Source: a virus
Taxonomy: Duplodnaviria; Heunggongvirae; Uroviricota; Caudoviricetes
IMG/VR virus record: IMGVR_UViG_3300028886_000034
Coordinates: 118,081-182,080 of that record
Length of the DNA stretch: 64,000 nt
Direction: 5' to 3' (one strand)
Shown here: one piece after another, positions 19,929-39,595 of the stretch
How positions within the stretch are numbered: the first letter of the stretch is position 1
Layout of the letters: each line of letters begins with the position of its first letter
Translations under genes and position numbers: made by a program
The notes under the pieces: generated by a model
What the model was told of the DNA's origin: nothing
Seen by the model: only the letters and a program-made list of their open reading frames with translations
The model's database searches: none

Positions 19929-20077
19929 GTAATTTAATTTTTAATAACGGAAAATGTCTGAATAAATGGAGATATTTTCTTCATTATTTTTAAGAAATAT
20001 TTTTAACAAATTATGATAAAATAATATTTAATTATTATTTATTTTTTATTTTTAATGAGGAGGTGAACTCCTAGAAA

Positions 20078-21055
20078 TTGCCTATATTATTTAATGAACA
20101 GTTTGATTCTGTAGGTAATCCTCATCAAATATTAGAATCAACTACAAGAAATGGCGGACCTCAAGTTAGGATAAAGACAATATTACAAACATGTGATGAT
20201 GTCAATAAAAATAAAAGAATTTATCCTAAAGAAGTATTACAGAGAGCTGTTGAAAAAATCAGACCTATGATGGAACAGCATGCTCTTACAGGTGAATTAG
20301 ATCATCCAGTTCCATCTGGAGCATCAGAAACAGATTCCTATAGACATTTTGTTGTTTTATACCAGAATACTTCTCATATAATTGAGAATATTTATTTTGA
20401 GGGTAATAAGGTTATGGGAATAGTTAAGACTGCTTCTACTCAAAAAGGTAGAGATATGGCAGGACTTATTATGGATGGTGTACCTGTTGGATTTTCCTTA
20501 AGAGCAATGGGGGAATCTGAAGTAAATTCATCTGGAATAACTACTATTAAAGATCCTTTTGAGATGGTGACATATGACTGCGTGTCTAATCCTTCGCACA
20601 AGGAAGCCAGAATGCAGTCAAGAGTAAGTGAATCTCAAATAGTAGTTCCACCAGCTAAAGGTAAACTTCTTATGGAGAATACCTTTGGTGCTTTAACAAT
20701 GGATAGAACTGGTTTATTGTATAGTATTACAAAGAATAAGTCTAAGACATTGGATCAGAGACTTAGAGAACTTTCAGAAACTATTAATAATCTTAAACCA
20801 GATCCTGAAAAAGTTCAAGAAATGTTTAGAAAGAAATCAATAGTTGGTTTATTAGAGGCTTATTTAAATGATGATAAGAATGATGTCAGTAAATCTTATC
20901 ATAACAGTATGGTAGAATATCTTACTGATTATTTTGATGATAAAGATAAGAGAAAAACTAATAGGGATAAAGCAAGAAAAGATTTATTAAAGAAACATTT
21001 CAATATTGATACTGAAGATATTTGGAAGGATAGTTATAAAGACTATCTTAGTTAA
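20078..21055 (+). CDS. Prohead protease (T4 gp21-like)
   Basis: NKNKRIYP, GELDHP, SHII, GFSLRAMG and YDCVSNPS match gp21-type proteases; upstream of the MCP. Confidence 0.9.
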   Translation: MPILFNEQFDSVGNPHQILESTTRNGGPQVRIKTILQTCDDVNKNKRIYPKEVLQRAVEKIRPMMEQHALTGELDHPVPSGASETDSYRHFVVLYQNTSHIIENIYFEGNKVMGIVKTASTQKGRDMAGLIMDGVPVGFSLRAMGESEVNSSGITTIKDPFEMVTYDCVSNPSHKEARMQSRVSESQIVVPPAKGKLLMENTFGALTMDRTGLLYSITKNKSKTLDQRLRELSETINNLKPDPEKVQEMFRKKSIVGLLEAYLNDDKNDVSKSYHNSMVEYLTDYFDDKDKRKTNRDKARKDLLKKHFNIDTEDIWKDSYKDYLS

Positions 21056-21070
21056 ATAAGTATACTTATC

Positions 21071-21099
21071 TTGACAAGATTTAGGTATACAGTTAAAAT
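21071..21099 (+). promoter_or_regulatory. Sigma70/SigA-type promoter
   Basis: TTGACA-17 bp-TAAAAT. Confidence 0.6.
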
Positions 21100-21624
21100 A
21101 TTCATATAAAAGGTTAATCTCTTTTATAAGAGGTTCCTGCTGGCCTTCGGAAGTTTATATTCTGAGGGCCTTCTATATTACTTTTGGTTTATTGGGAGTT
21201 TAGGCCTTGTCTAACTTCCTTTAAATGTATAGAAACATACTTAAAAAGCATTAATGTTTTACTTGTGCAGAACATAATATGCTTTAAGAGTAAGTAAAAA
21301 TAATAGTTACAATAAGAGAATCTAATATTGATGCAAAGTAATTATCTATACTATTTTCAAAATAATTATTATCATTTAAAGTCATATAAATGAAGAAGAA
21401 GATCGAAGGACTTTAGTAGTGTAAGTAATTATGTAAACATTTTTATAAGATTTACTTTACTATTTTTATTGATTCTTAACAGTATGTTATTTATGCTCAA
21501 ATTAATGCAGTGTTATGTGATGTTAGCGAGTAATCATTTATTTTGATGTTACAATATGGTATGTTTAAAAAAATCTTAACTTAGTGTTTACTTTAATGTA
21601 AACTATTTTTGGAGGAATTTTCAA

Positions 21625-21898
21625 ATGGCAAATGATATTACTCGCGGCTTCTTAACTGAATCAGTTCATACTATGAATAAGATGGGCCTTGACCCTTATT
21701 CCAATTATAAAGAGATTTTAAGTGAGGATGCTCTTTTCAGCCACTATTCACAGTCTCTTGCTGAGGGTCTTGAAGGTGAGGTTAAGTCCTCATTCCTTAA
21801 TATGGCTGACCATATGCGTGGTTCTCTTGTTTCTGAGAGTACTGCTTATGGCTTTAGTCCTATTGCTCCCCTTACGCTTCCTATTTTCAGAAGGATGT
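21625..21898 (+). CDS. Major capsid protein (T4 gp23-like), exon 1 of 4; join(21625..21898,22189..23036,23356..23415,25282..25683), 527 aa
   Basis: GGAGG RBS. Ends LPIFRRM; splicing gives RRM-W-PQLVAREALTVLPM, matching the gp23 RRxxPxLxA...PM segment. Confidence 0.85.
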
Positions 21899-22188
21899 AG
21901 TAAAATTTGAGGCATGCATCCTAAAATTAATGCGAATTGCTGGAAAGTCCTAAAATTAAATATACTACAATGTATATAGTTAATAAATATTTAAATTGGA
22001 TAATCAGCAGGATATACTCTTATTAAAGAGAAATCTTCAACGACTAATTAAAGTTAACTAGTAATAGTTAAAACTTAAAGCACATTAACTCTATATAATA
22101 TAGAGATGATATAGTCTAATTGTATTCTTTATATAATGAAAATTAAATATCAGCTTATTTAATAAGTTATTAAAGTTGATGAATACAG
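21899..22188 (+). ncRNA. Group I intron 1 in MCP (290 nt, no ORF)
   Basis: Core: GAATTGCTGGAAA 21934, AATCAGCAGG 22002, TTCAACGACTA 22036, GATATAGTCT 22108. P1: exon GGATGT / GCATCC 21916 (U-G). P10: TGAGGC / exon-2 GCCTCA. P9.0: TGTATTC / GAATACA, then terminal G. Confidence 0.92.
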
Positions 22189-23036
22189 GGCCTCAGTTAG
22201 TTGCCCGCGAAGCTCTTACAGTCCTTCCCATGGACAAGCCCGAAATTGCTAAGAGCTTTATGAGAATTGTTGCCACTGTTGGTGGTAACGAGGTGGAAAT
22301 GCCCAACAACCGTGTTAGTGTTTCGACCGGTCAGGCATTTGGTGAATTGGGCCTCAATGTTGACATCGAGCCCATCAATGTTGTTATTTCAGGTAGCGGC
22401 GATCATATCCATCGTCTTGACCTTCTTGATCATATGAGCAATAGAGCTGGTCAGCCTGGTAAGTTCAATCCTACCAATGCTCACATTACTTCTGCTGATT
22501 TCGCCATTGTTGGCGTTACTCGCAGTGACGGTAAGGAAATTGATATCCATGTTGAGCCTGAAGACAGTGGCGCTTTTAGCTTTGCTGTTGAGTGCGATGG
22601 TATTGAGGATATCGTTTCTGGTAATATCAATTATACGACTGGTGTCTTCTCAATTTCTTCGACTCGTGAACATGCCAGTGGCGTGAAGGTTGAAAGTGTC
22701 CGTATTGTTGGTTCAATGACTCAGGCCGAGGAGATGTACGCTAATAAGGTTCACCTTAAGAATACATACGTTAAGTTCCGCGCCGAAGACATCGAGATTC
22801 AGACTGACTGGACGATCCAGGAAGAGCAGGACTATAAGGCCTACTTCGACATCGACATCCAGACTCAGCTTGTTGACCATATGGGTAAGATTATTGCTAT
22901 GGATATCGACCGTCGAATCCTTAATAAGCTTATTCGTGAGACTGAGCTTTTCAATCCTACCTCCTGTGGTAATGGCACCAGTGATGCCGATAGATTTACG
23001 TTTGATCGTAGACCTATGGCTAACTTTGCTTGGGGT
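22189..23036 (+). CDS. Major capsid protein exon 2 of 4
   Basis: Contains TDWTIQEEQDYKAYFDIDIQTQLVDHMGKIIAMDIDRRIL, comparable to the gp23 'wt.E.aQDl.a.hg.D.e.el...l..ei..eI.reil' region. Confidence 0.9.
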
Positions 23037-23355
23037 ACTTTTGTGCTCACTTTATAGAGTAATCTATAATGAAATCAAATATGAAATGCTGGAAGGTCCT
23101 TAGAGTCAAGTAAACTAAAAGTTGTTTAAAGCTAAATGTTGATAATTACTTGAATTGGATAATCAGCAGGATTAAATGAAAACTATAAATAAAGGTTAGT
23201 TATATTTTAATCTTCAACGACTACTTGTGTAAGACATGCTTATATGTTAAGCCAATGTCTGATGTTTATTTACCCTATAAAATATATTATGAATTTTAGG
23301 GATAAGATATAGTCTATAGTCCTTTTAATAAGTTACTAAAGTAGCTGTGGACTAG
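23037..23355 (+). ncRNA. Group I intron 2 in MCP (319 nt, no ORF)
   Basis: Core: AAATGCTGGAAG 23084, AATCAGCAGG 23161, TTCAACGACTA 23213, AAGATATAGTCT 23304. P9.0: TAGTCC / GGACTA, then terminal G. P1 is short (GGGT / GCTC). Frame is restored. Confidence 0.88.
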
Positions 23356-23415
23356 CCTAAAGAATGGAATAATCAAATCGTTGTTAAGCTCAACGATTTA
23401 AGTGCTAAAATTTAT
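23356..23415 (+). CDS. Major capsid protein exon 3 of 4 (60-nt micro-exon, PKEWNNQIVVKLNDLSAKIY)
   Basis: Not in the ORF track. Open frame between the intron 2 terminal G and the intron 3 P1 (exon AAATTTAT / GTAGGTT). Confidence 0.85.
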
Positions 23416-23883
23416 CAAAAAGTAGGTTAACTTCCTACTGTCAAGGTAAGCATATTGAGAAATCAGTATGTAGTGGTTTAATTCTTTCATATTCAATTAA
23501 ACTCCCTATCACCTGAATTGCTGGAAACTCTTAATAGTTAGTAAAACTACAACATAAATATGAAATATGGTTATATGTTAATGTTATGAAAATATAAAAA
23601 ATTTACTAAATAGTATAAGGTTAAACCCTAAGTACTTTTTTATTGCAATAGACAACCAGCATCTAAGTCCGAACAGGAAAAAGTTCAACGACTATCCCCC
23701 CTAAGGGGAGTACACTCAAGTGAGTGGAAGTGGGTGAATCCAAACAGGTAATGCTGTGGAATGAGATATAGTCTGTGCTTTAGCGAAAACTAAAGAAGGC
23801 TATTGTATATAGCCTGTGAGAAATTGACGACTTCTCATGAACAAAAACCTCTATAAATTAATTAAAGAAAATTATTGATCCTC

Positions 23884-23911
23884 TTGACTAAATGGATTTG
23901 AATGGTATACT
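23884..23911 (+). promoter_or_regulatory. Intron-internal sigma70-type promoter for tnpB
   Basis: TTGACT-16 bp-TATACT with a TG extension, then AAAGGAGG RBS at 23941. Confidence 0.55.
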
Positions 23912-23957
23912 TCTGGGTATAGAAGTTCAAATCTTTATAGAAAGGAGGATAACTAGA

Positions 23958-25235
23958 ATGAAACGAACAATTAAGCAGCGACTTAAACATCTTACTAAAG
24001 ATGAGTATTTGATTTTAAAAGAACTTACACACGAAGCTAAAAACATAGTTAATGAAGCTATTTATTTGAAGAGGCAGCATTTTTTTAATACTGGTTTATA
24101 TCTAGATGACAAAATGACTAGGAAACAAATGGAAGATAATCCTAGTTATAGGATCTTGAATTCTAATATGAGCCAACAGATTATTAAAAAAGTTGATTTA
24201 ATGTTTAAATCGTTTTTTGGATTGTTGAAAGCTAAAAAGTCTGGGAAAGTATCTTCTGATAGAAAAATACATATGCCAAGATATTTGGATAAAAATGGAT
24301 ATTATACGCTAATTATTCAAGAAGTTCCAAAATTCGAAAATAATAAATATTATGTGCCTTATACGTGGAAGTTTTCAAAAACTCATAAAAGAATAGCTAT
24401 TAAATTACCTTTAACTTTGGTTAATAAAAAAGATATGATAAAAGAAATTAGAATTGTTCCAAGGTATAATGCTAAGTTTTTCGAAGTACATTATGTGTAC
24501 AATATCGAAGAGACACAACCTCAAATTAATTTTGACTTATCAAAAGTATTAGCAATTGACCTAGGGATAAATAATTTTGCTACCTGTGTAACTACAGAAG
24601 GTAAATCATTTATTATTGATGGTAAAAAAATGAAAAGTTATAATCAATGGTATAATAAAAGAAATGCTATTCTTAGTGGGATTAAGGATAAACAAAAATT
24701 TGGAAATGACTTAACTAAGCAACAGATTTGTCTTACCTTAAAAAGAAATAATCGAATATTGGATTATATTAGTAAAGCTTCTAAGTATATTATTAATTAT
24801 TGTATTTCTAATAAAATAGGTACAATTATTTTAGGGTATCGTGAAGACTTTCAAGATAAGTTCAATATAGGAGTAAAAAACAACCAAATTTTTGGGTATA
24901 CACCTTTTGGGCAGTTTAAGTTTAAATTAGAATATTTATGTGATGAAGTTGGTATTAGCTTAATAATCCAAGAAGAGAGTTATACATCTAAAGCATCTTT
25001 TTTAGATAACGATGATATTCCTATATATGATAAAAACAATCTCCTTGAATACTCTTTCTCAGGGAGACGCATTAAAAGAGGATTATATAAATCTGCTAAG
25101 GGTATATTAATTAATGCTGATGTTAATGCTGCATTTAATATTCTTCGTAAAAGTAAGATTGTGCCTAACGAAATTGTTAGACTATATTCTAGTGGTGCTC
25201 TGAGCACACCTGTAAGAATAAGGCTACATCAATAG
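23958..25235 (+). CDS. tnpB: TnpB RNA-guided endonuclease (IS200/IS605-type, no C-terminal Zn-finger cysteines), intron-encoded
   Basis: RuvC-I LAIDLGINN, QEESYTSKASFLD, RuvC-III INADVNAAFNILRK, C-terminal TPVRI. Start moved to the ATG after AAAGGAGG (track start 23892). Confidence 0.92.
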   Translation: MKRTIKQRLKHLTKDEYLILKELTHEAKNIVNEAIYLKRQHFFNTGLYLDDKMTRKQMEDNPSYRILNSNMSQQIIKKVDLMFKSFFGLLKAKKSGKVSSDRKIHMPRYLDKNGYYTLIIQEVPKFENNKYYVPYTWKFSKTHKRIAIKLPLTLVNKKDMIKEIRIVPRYNAKFFEVHYVYNIEETQPQINFDLSKVLAIDLGINNFATCVTTEGKSFIIDGKKMKSYNQWYNKRNAILSGIKDKQKFGNDLTKQQICLTLKRNNRILDYISKASKYIINYCISNKIGTIILGYREDFQDKFNIGVKNNQIFGYTPFGQFKFKLEYLCDEVGISLIIQEESYTSKASFLDNDDIPIYDKNNLLEYSFSGRRIKRGLYKSAKGILINADVNAAFNILRKSKIVPNEIVRLYSSGALSTPVRIRLHQ

Positions 25236-25281
25236 TAAACTTCTTACAAATTAATAATTTCTTTAATTATTAAGAGTTCAG

Positions 25282-25683
25282 GTTGACACGAATATGACCC
25301 AGCCCAATGTCCTTATCGCCAATCCTCTTGATCTGGCTTTATTCAAGAATACCTCTGACTATAAGTTTGAGGGCGATATCAAGGGCGGTGAGTACGGGGA
25401 GACTCCTGTTGCCGGTACACTTAACGACACCTGGAAGGCTCTTAGTACTCCTCTTATGCCTCAAGGTAAGATCCTTGTTCTTATCAAGCCCACTGATGAG
25501 GCTAACGCAGTGTTTGTCTATGCTCCTTATAAGCCCCTTGTTGTTTCGCCTTGGCCTCTTGGTCGTATTCCTTCGATGACCTTTATCAGCCGCTTTGCTA
25601 CGAGATTCATTCGTAGAGAGGGTGTTGGTATCCTTCGTGTCATCGGTGGAGAGAATGGCGGTTTCTATGGTGCTCGTGGCTAA
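25282..25683 (+). CDS. Major capsid protein exon 4 of 4
   Basis: VDTNMTQPNVLIANP...FVYAPYKP...TFISRF resembles the gp23 C-terminus (N.ii.sp, yAPY, f.tRY). Confidence 0.9.
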   Translation, partial: VDTNMTQPNVLIANPLDLALFKNTSDYKFEGDIKGGEYGETPVAGTLNDTWKALSTPLMPQGKILVLIKPTDEANAVFVYAPYKPLVVSPWPLGRIPSMTFISRFATRFIRREGVGILRVIGGENGGFYGARG

Positions 25684-25723
25684 TAGAAATTAGTACAGCA
25701 ATAAGAAATAGACAAATATAATT

Positions 25724-25765
25724 AAAAAAAAAACTACTATCCTCATAAGAGGGTAGTAGTTTTTT
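25724..25765 (+). terminator. Intrinsic terminator after MCP
   Basis: AAACTACTATCCTC-ATAA-GAGGGTAGTAGTTTTTT. Confidence 0.85.
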
Positions 25766-37956: not shown

Positions 37957-38259
37957 AATCGTTAATAACGATTGCCACTTCGCAAAGTAATTTGCGTCGT
38001 ATTTTTGATTGTGAATTACGGGAAAACCTACATAAGAGTCGTAACTACCGAATGGTAATAATGTTACGAATTAGGTAATCCGTAGCCGTGTTTAATAGTA
38101 ATTAAACAGGTTCAACGACTATCGTTCATAGAGCGAGTAAGATAGACGATATATTGCGTCAATGTCTGATGTACAAAGGCCACTATTATGTGGTTGAAGA
38201 TATAGTCTAGGCATGTTAACGTACAGCGAAAGCAATGTACGAGGTTATATAGATCACCC

Positions 38260-38289
38260 TTGACAATTCCGAACAAATTATGATACTAT
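38260..38289 (+). promoter_or_regulatory. Intron-internal promoter for tnpB (sigma70-type, with embedded AACAAATT)
   Basis: TTGACA-18 bp-TACTAT with a TG extension; AACAAATT at 38272. Confidence 0.5.
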
Positions 38290-38325
38290 TGTGGTATCGG
38301 AAACATAAAATTTGTCGGACAGGAG

Positions 38326-39486
38326 GTGATGACCTTGATAATACGTCACAAAATTGAATTGATTCTTAACAATAGCATGAAACGTTATTTTGATCAGTGT
38401 TTCGGATATAGTCGATATTCGTGGAATCAACTTCTTGGGATGCATAATAACGATAAAACGACTTCTTTAAACGAACAACTTAAGCAATTTAAAGCTGATC
38501 GACAGAAGTGGGAGTATGCTATGCCATCATATATCCCTACTTATGAAATGCAGAACCTTAAAGCAGCATTAAGACGAAAAACACATAAAGCTAATTTTAA
38601 ATCTAAAAAGAATCCTAAACAATCGTTTTATGTGGATAATTCTCGTTTTTTAAAAGGAAGCTTTTCGATAGTAGGTAAGCATATAAAGTTTGGTATCGTT
38701 TTGGGAAGAAAGTGTCGAATTCGTAAACAGGACCGATGGATGAAATTAACGGAGATACCAGCGTTTTTCGGTGAAAAAGATTTCCGTATTTTATCAGTAA
38801 CGATACTTAAAGAAGTAGATCGATACTATGCGTCATTTTGTATTCAGATTGATTATCGAAGTAAAACTACCGGAACGAATGCGGTTGGTATTGATCCGGG
38901 AGTGCATACAGTGATGACACTTTCAGATGGTACAAAATACGAATCACCGAAAACACTCAAGAAACTAGATCAAAAAGCGAAATACTATCAAAAGCGTATG
39001 TCGAAACGCTATATACGAAATGCTAAGAAACAAAGTAAGCGTTATATGAAAGCGAAAATCAAGCATCAGAAAACGCTTCGCCGTAAGAATCAAATCAAAA
39101 CAGACTTTATGCATAAGGCAACAACTGAGATCGTAAAGCGAAACAATTATATCGCTTGGGAAGACTGTAAATCATCGCGACTTATGAGGAATCATAAACT
39201 CGCCAGATCGATTGGCGAATCGTGTTGGTTTACACTAAAAACGATGTTGGAGCAAAAATGTCAAATGCATAGAGCCACTTTTGATTTAGTTGATCCGATA
39301 AACGCCGCAACACAAACTTGCAGTGAGTGCGGGCATCGTTTTGAAGGTGATGAAAAGCTGAATTTAAATGACAGAGTATATATCTGCCCTGAATGCGGAT
39401 TAAAACTAGATCGAGACGTAAACGCTGCTCGAAACATTCTCAAGTTTTCGAAGCGTAAGCTGGCTGGGGCACAGCCATCCGAATAA
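38326..39486 (+). CDS. tnpB: TnpB RNA-guided endonuclease with Zn finger, intron-encoded
   Basis: N-terminal HTH-type segment (YFDQCFGYSRYSWN). RuvC motifs GIDPG, IAWED, DRDVNAARNI. Zn finger CSECG/CPECG. True start may be TTG 38335. Confidence 0.92.
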   Translation: MMTLIIRHKIELILNNSMKRYFDQCFGYSRYSWNQLLGMHNNDKTTSLNEQLKQFKADRQKWEYAMPSYIPTYEMQNLKAALRRKTHKANFKSKKNPKQSFYVDNSRFLKGSFSIVGKHIKFGIVLGRKCRIRKQDRWMKLTEIPAFFGEKDFRILSVTILKEVDRYYASFCIQIDYRSKTTGTNAVGIDPGVHTVMTLSDGTKYESPKTLKKLDQKAKYYQKRMSKRYIRNAKKQSKRYMKAKIKHQKTLRRKNQIKTDFMHKATTEIVKRNNYIAWEDCKSSRLMRNHKLARSIGESCWFTLKTMLEQKCQMHRATFDLVDPINAATQTCSECGHRFEGDEKLNLNDRVYICPECGLKLDRDVNAARNILKFSKRKLAGAQPSE

Positions 39487-39595
39487 CGCTGGAGTAGTCA
39501 TAAGACCTCCAGCAGTATCGGAGGCAGCTACGTTTGTACAGCGTTGAGCAAGGTCAGTAACGGAGTAATTCGTTGCGTAAGAACCTGCATGTCAG

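Follow-up and report, generated by a model that had tools for sequence, protein, structure and literature searches.

The window analysed here is a stretch of 64,000 nucleotides of phage DNA (IMG/VR record IMGVR_UViG_3300028886_000034, positions 118,081 to 182,080), which forms part of the complete 284-kb record of a giant phage from the rumen (G000). At positions 21,625 to 25,683 it holds the gene of a gp23-like major capsid protein, interrupted by three intervening sequences. As the original prediction had proposed, all three are group I introns, an assignment that is based on their matches to the Rfam family RF00028, on their P1, P10 and P9.0 pairings and on their exact removal in contigs described below. 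The third, intron 3, carries a tnpB gene that had been overlooked in that prediction and that we regard as the main feature of the locus. The features are listed in Table 1.

Table 1. Features of the split capsid gene and its surroundings, in window coordinates.
Feature	Position	Strand	Details
Prohead protease gene	20078..21055	+	PF03420; shares the intron-free contig L264 with the capsid gene
Exon 1, major capsid gene	21625..21898	+	274 nt; joined frame, homologue alignment, L264
Intron 1, group I, without open reading frame (ORF)	21899..22188	+	290 nt; RF00028 E 1.9e-5; P1 U-G, P10 6 bp, P9.0 7 bp
Exon 2	22189..23036	+	848 nt; PF07068 match; joined frame, L264
Intron 2, group I, without ORF	23037..23355	+	319 nt; RF00028 E 3.7e-4; P9.0 6 bp
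Exon 3	23356..23415	+	60 nt; residues 375-394; modelled as a helix
Intron 3, group A-type IStron without tnpA	23416..25281	+	1,866 nt; ends TTCAG
P10 strand and internal guide sequence GTAAG, intron 3	23439..23450	+	pair with exon 4 +2..+7 and TTTAT
Ribozyme core, intron 3	23470..23795	+	RF00028 43.2 bits, E 7.5e-9
Sigma70-like promoter for tnpB, inside intron 3 (predicted)	23884..23911	+	10/12 match, extended TG
tnpB, IS605 family	23958..25235	+	425 aa; PF01385, PF07282; rearranged RuvC D201, G293, E339, D388
OmegaRNA scaffold	25194..25281	+	nexus hairpin, second stem, pseudoknot 25200-25205 with 25276-25281
OmegaRNA guide (predicted)	25282..25301	+	about the first 20 nt of exon 4; from the TnpB/IStron mechanism
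Exon 4	25282..25683	+	402 nt; joined frame, homologue alignment, L264
Terminator-like hairpin	25733..25765	+	visible in the sequence; L264 ends there; not reported by the terminator scan

The RF00028 matches of the three introns lie below the gathering score of the family, and an Rfam search at the gathering threshold missed all of them. The boundaries agree with those first proposed: each intron is preceded by U and ends in G, with a U-G pair in the P1 helix and a P9.0 pairing. The P9.0 helices of introns 1 and 2 have 7 and 6 bp, respectively; that of intron 3 consists of 2 bp plus a 5-bp closing helix, and P9.1/P9.2-like hairpins can also be observed there. The P10 pairing is formed at 6/6, 5/7 and 6/6 positions in introns 1, 2 and 3, respectively. 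The sequence GTAAG, found in most members of the intron 3 family, pairs with TTTAT as P1; an alternative P1 in the GTAGGTT register was dropped in favour of this family-conserved one. In a search limited to LAGLIDADG_2 genes, none that could mobilise introns 1 and 2 was found in this genome.

The exons (274 + 848 + 60 + 402 nt) join into a reading frame of 1584 nt that encodes 527 aa, and the junction peptides RRMWPQL, FAWGPKEW and KIYVDTN, predicted earlier, are reproduced in the translation. The joined protein is colinear with the intron-free homologues P0001 (91%) and P0002 (84%), is aligned to them without gaps at all junctions, and matches both at 19 of the 20 residues of exon 3. Standard gene calling yields pieces of 91, 292 and 129 aa and overlooks exon 3, as had been pointed out. 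The expected gp23/HK97-type product was confirmed by a PF07068 (Gp23) match of the joined protein (E 2.5e-21) and by the structure prediction that had been suggested as a check. The model made from an alignment of 54 sequences (predicted local distance difference test score, pLDDT, 71; predicted template modelling score, pTM, 0.49) has the HK97/gp23 fold; this larger alignment was required, the earlier model on 7 sequences (pLDDT 44) being unusable. Foldseek matched the model to the S6 (Staphylococcus jumbo phage), P1 and T4 capsids (7X30, E 1e-19; T4, E 5e-11), and the nearest annotated relatives by sequence are AR9/PBS1-type head proteins, with 26% identity. These AR9/PBS1, S6-type and T4 gp23 capsids are the best sequence and fold matches, yet distant ones, and their genes, unlike that of the window, were matched in one piece. 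An assembly artefact was ruled out, the region being 100% identical in six other assemblies. The low G+C content of exon 3 was considered as the mark of a foreign tract and set aside, since its identity to relatives is ordinary.

By its flank, its 3' end and its gene, intron 3 is a group A IStron carrying TnpB. Group A IStrons have been defined by insertion after TTGAT, ATTAT or TTTAT and by the 3' end TCAG (PMC4227781); intron 3 ends in TCAG and is preceded by TTTAT, the last five bases of exon 3, which form both the target-adjacent motif (TAM) and the 5' strand of P1. The element resembles the known group A IStrons (CdISt1/CdiIStron, FnISt; PMC4227781; bioRxiv 10.1101/2023.11.20.567912) in the fusion of a group I intron to an IS605-family tnpB, in the insertion after TTTAT without target duplication, in the absence of tnpA, which may be missing in them as well, and in the overlap of the omegaRNA with the 3' splice site. 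It differs from them in that it interrupts a jumbo phage's major capsid gene, in the loss of the TnpA palindromes and in having subclades that keep one site each in the style of homing introns. The 2014 survey of IStrons names phages for group B only (PMC4227781).

The tnpB gene is located downstream of the ribozyme, and its nearest named relatives adjoin genes for Y1 TnpA. The RuvC residues D201, E339 and D388 are invariant across 14 homologues, and G293 takes the place of the usual RuvC-II glutamate. The same arrangement is known from the rearranged-RuvC proteins TnpB2/TvTnpB (PMC10530073), in which Gly stands at the canonical RuvC-II position and the alternative Glu lies some 45 residues further on; the intron 3 TnpB is likened to them by its sequence. 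In TvTnpB the rearranged RuvC is active (PMC10530073). The TnpB of intron 3 thus appears to be intact, and its catalytic triad predicts activity. Single-protein scans with TnpB found nothing, alignment-based scans worked, and a sequence search of TnpB against solved structures gave no match.

The intron's 3' end can be folded into an omegaRNA scaffold with a pseudoknot of 6 bp that includes the last six intron bases. Among ten elements, the nexus, stem 2 and pseudoknot are 98.7% paired with 4 compensated pairs, controls that lean in favour of the structure because it was drawn from these same sequences. The predicted guide has no target in the phage's own genome, the best site having 3 mismatches in 12 and 9 in 20. 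A similar sigma70-like promoter occupies the equivalent position in L084, L086, L098 and L265, and matches of that quality alone are no commoner than chance.

The removal of the introns can be followed at the level of contigs. P0130, a database protein, has the same sequence as the joined 527-aa protein, and its contig L264 equals window positions 19934-25733 minus exactly the three introns, with 100% identity, spanning from just upstream of the prohead protease gene to the terminator-like hairpin. In L091, exons 2 and 3 are joined exactly, intron 2 being absent, and intron 3 is retained, and in L090, from a sister sample, intron 2 is retained. L093 consists of intron 3 flanked on either side by exactly 30 nt, the length that a bubble in a k=31 graph would leave. 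A junction-pattern scan of viral contigs returned unrelated matches only. L264 and L091 are best read as fully and partly spliced RNA, this being the simplest reading; an identical intron-free DNA allele behind L264 is an unlikely alternative. The source samples of the Joint Genome Institute (JGI) are presumably rumen metatranscriptomes. Together with the capsid fold, the identity of P0130 and the exact three-intron removal in L264 uphold the earlier claim that capsid synthesis depends on three splicing events.

Several features of a transposon are missing from intron 3. No Y1 or serine TnpA gene was found in the element or in the complete genome, the left and right ends of the intron show no similarity to each other, and the right-end palindrome used by TnpA is absent. 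We examined 160 related tnpB loci, of which 23 carry an intron. Of the other IStrons, 21/23 had the right-end palindrome with its GAAY guide, 19 of them detected by script and two, L184 and L185, added because the script had miscalled their ends; most of them also keep a matching left end. The count was 0/7 for the examined members of the phage clade to which the intron 3 TnpB belongs. This clade is monophyletic (support 100/99) and is split by insertion site into a capsid subclade (100/99), comprising the intron 3 TnpB and P0009 (68% identical), a subclade in a GNAT-domain gene (100/100; L086, L087, L098 and L263) and a DnaB site (L084). The subclades stay at one site over synonymous divergences (dS) near 1, and tnpB is under purifying selection in the clade, with ratios of nonsynonymous to synonymous divergence (dN/dS) of 0.13-0.34. 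In L265 the same intron is found at the same capsid site with a length of 728 nt and with tnpB cut down to its last ~41 codons; such loss of the nuclease gene with the intron kept resembles the decay phase of the homing cycle. On these sequence comparisons intron 3 no longer seems to behave as a transposon. A second phage-restricted IStron clade (100/100) was also observed among L099-L178 (e.g. L104, L111, L128, L132, L138, L141, L147 and L157), in gut phages of ~200-235 kb, at many different sites and with the TnpA palindromes mostly intact; in L132 the left-end palindrome is lost.

A short tract shared between carriers can be observed at two insertion sites. The capsid gene of L265 is 92-95% identical to IStron-free alleles and 87% identical to the window gene; around the insertion point, from about -12 to +18, it agrees with the window allele at all informative sites (6/6 to 7/7; Fisher p 4e-6 to 5e-4), and it departs from it at +21. 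The tract is the longest such run in the gene against 2 of 3 references (permutation p 0.0006 and 0.0015). TvTnpB cuts at +21/22 (PMC10530073), and the stretch from the insertion point to the cut is therefore what homing must copy. At the GNAT site, where no P10 pairing was seen, 3/4 codons in the first 15 nt have wobble bases that are common to the four carriers and differ from the empty allele of this genome; further on, where L263 is 94% identical to that empty allele, the count is 4/104 (p 7e-4). The family thus displays occupied and empty alleles of one site, site-specific lineages and a co-converted flank (within a mosaic gene), which are characters of homing introns. In this genome the empty GNAT site (G000:C1 248825) has TATAT and several wobble mismatches, and the empty DnaB site (G000:C1 81400) retains TTTAT and differs from L084 at 3 guide positions. 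In L098, an in-frame TGA is located downstream of the IStron at about +24 of GNAT exon 2, which may be an error, a pseudogene or recoding.

Taken together, these observations suggest that intron 3 is an IS605-type IStron that probably now works as an RNA-guided homing intron in a hot spot for introns in the capsid gene. Introns 1 and 2 would act as ORF-less ribozymes, and at the level of contigs all three introns are spliced out of the capsid mRNA. From its internal promoter, intron 3 would give a tnpB mRNA with the omegaRNA folded from its 3' end, and read-through into exon 4 would supply the guide. The complex of TnpB and omegaRNA would then cut the junction of TTTAT with exon 4, which is present only in an IStron-free allele, in the capsid gene of a co-infecting phage, and donor-templated repair would copy the intron plus the stretch up to the cut ~20 nt downstream, as the shared tract suggests. 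On the capsid transcript, binding by TnpB and splicing should compete because the 3' end of the omegaRNA is also the splice site, in analogy with CboIStron, for which such competition has been shown. Once the element has spread, tnpB could decay while the ribozyme remains, as seen in L265. Whether the conversion of this phage lineage of IStrons from transposon into RNA-guided homing intron is complete seems to us evenly balanced; it would comprise the loss of TnpA and of the ends, an exon-derived guide, one site per lineage in an essential gene, a donor tract of the size of TAM plus guide, immunity of empty alleles by wobble changes, and competition of TnpB with the splicing of the most abundant phage mRNA.

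Several points weigh against homing by intron 3. Cleavage and homing are deduced from comparative evidence, the tnpB promoter is a consensus match only, the origin of L264 and L091 in RNA libraries is presumed, and the seven clade members without palindrome represent non-independent losses. The capsid gene is a mosaic with other donor-like runs, one of which is longer than the tract when L004 is the reference, and the window for the tract test was picked after the data were seen. Pairing in P1 and P10 could account for the shared bases at -3, +3 and +6 of the capsid site, but does not cover those at +9 to +18. Moreover, 0/16 sampled IStron-free capsid alleles match TAM and guide; each differs in the TAM or at four or more guide positions, so that present targets would be close kin only. 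Instead, a host TnpA acting in trans might have placed the element, which would then be an ordinary non-autonomous group A IStron whose TnpB serves only for restorative homing after excision by TnpA and whose site sharing stems from vertical descent. The family occupies many unrelated sites, nearly all after NTTAT, so its ancestors did transpose; moreover, IS605 elements with Y1 TnpA are closely related, and group A IStrons without tnpA are already known. We nevertheless consider this unlikely, given that the palindromes and the GAAY DNA guide are lost in the whole clade, that each subclade has kept a single site over so long a divergence, and that the carriers share a short local tract only, the rest of the gene following the empty alleles. 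It is less probable still that the main reason for keeping TnpB is a benefit to the phage, as a weapon or binder that cuts or blocks the capsid genes of competitors or as a tuner of the splicing of its own capsid transcript, with homing secondary. Purifying selection on tnpB would be compatible with such a role, as would the contigs that retain intron 3 and the repression of IStron splicing by TnpB in E. coli, and an intron nuclease of PhiPA3 mediates interference competition (PMC11620839); the deletion of tnpB in L265, the absence of the whole element from relatives and the guide mismatches of all sampled empty alleles argue against it.

The original prediction had also proposed that splicing order or interference across the 60-nt exon 3 could limit or time capsid production. 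That the layout of three introns and a micro-exon is a device selected for this purpose appears very improbable. The partly spliced form L091 would fit it, skipping of exon 3 would keep the frame, removing a helical stretch, and exon skipping is known in tandem phage group I introns. Exon 2, however, has an end that is mismatched to the guide sequence of intron 3, and no exon-skipped product was found among the capsid protein cluster members listed. On exon 3, P10 of intron 2 occupies the first 7 nt and P1 of intron 3 the last 5 nt, so that the two splice-site pairings are separate. The survey of intron number that had been suggested as a check gave 0-5 introns per capsid gene among relatives, at freely varying sites. 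No intron is present in the sister capsid genes L001-L004; the L018 gene has four introns at four other sites and a 15-nt exon, two of the introns encoding LAGLIDADG nucleases; and the L265 gene has five introns, one of them encoding LAGLIDADG, and a 14-nt exon. One L265 intron is homologous to intron 1 (73%) at the identical site. With introns so variable in relatives and no skipped product seen, the timing role is unsupported, and the micro-exon, as far as these genes tell, is not special. Fragment ends in the capsid protein clusters indicate at least eight intron sites, and selfish group I introns can be said to have a hot spot in the gp23-like capsid gene. The first capsid intron of L018 (L018:2790-3780), which encodes a LAGLIDADG nuclease and is followed by the 15-nt exon, seems to be preceded by C rather than U at the 5' splice site. 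In L012 and L014, a group II intron interrupts related capsid genes around codon 305. The L010 capsid gene holds an ORF-containing group I-like intron near codon 93 and is closely preceded by a tnpB.

A virion gene with three introns has a precedent in orf142 of Staphylococcus phage Twort, in which three group I introns and a short internal exon are likewise present. As cited in PMC10136302 and PMC11878797 (Landthaler and Shub 1999), it is a tail tube gene with a 23-nt exon that undergoes skipping. The window differs in that the gene is a capsid gene, no skipping was seen and one intron carries TnpB. Like classical phage homing introns (T4 td, and the LAGLIDADG introns of L018 and L265), intron 3 occupies a fixed site in a conserved essential gene, with a co-converted flank and, in L265, decay of the nuclease gene. 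In contrast to their protein-guided endonucleases, its nuclease would be guided by RNA and would take the guide from the resident exon, so that TnpB should be sensitive to wobble changes. In the literature that we searched, TnpB had been proposed by inference as the homing endonuclease of TnpA-less IStrons: a 2026 review suggests that these could spread by intron homing, offers intact TnpB as an indication, and notes that TnpB had not been seen disrupted on its own (PMC13565253). L265, without both tnpA and tnpB, represents a known state by comparison with that review. Our search found no paper with co-conversion evidence for IStron homing and none on IStrons in phage capsid genes. The locus family described here offers natural comparative evidence in the form of site-bound lineages, lost ends, a tract with the footprint of the guide at two sites and a decayed copy; it defines the sequences of donor and recipient with which homing could be tested directly, and provides contig-level evidence for a group A IStron spliced from a phage capsid mRNA. 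The splitting of capsid genes at so many sites, and their fragmentation by gene callers, affects marker-gene surveys of this group of jumbo phages.

Other introns and TnpB genes were observed in the same genome. A second TnpB-carrying group I intron (window ~37957-39595; RF00028, 59 bits) is located in a tail fibre/collar gene; it is preceded by TTGGT, ends in TCAG, and its tnpB (38326-39486) belongs to a different TnpB lineage. A third, related to it (42%), lies on the minus strand upstream of an RNA polymerase beta-like ORF (G000:C1 ~211100-213000, coordinates approximate). An ORF-less group I intron is found in an nrdD-like gene (G000:C1 31737-31972, minus strand). At G000:C1 75976-78300, a TnpB-like gene (35% to the capsid TnpB, C-terminal part), which sits on a long branch outside the IStron clade, is followed by a CRISPR array; its spacers, 33 nt long by the repeat definition used, have no convincing targets in this genome or in relatives. 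Finally, the 570-nt gap between the protease and capsid genes (window 21056-21624) contains hairpins and a strong sigma70-like promoter match (21071-21099), is 84% conserved in L265, and is possibly a structured leader.

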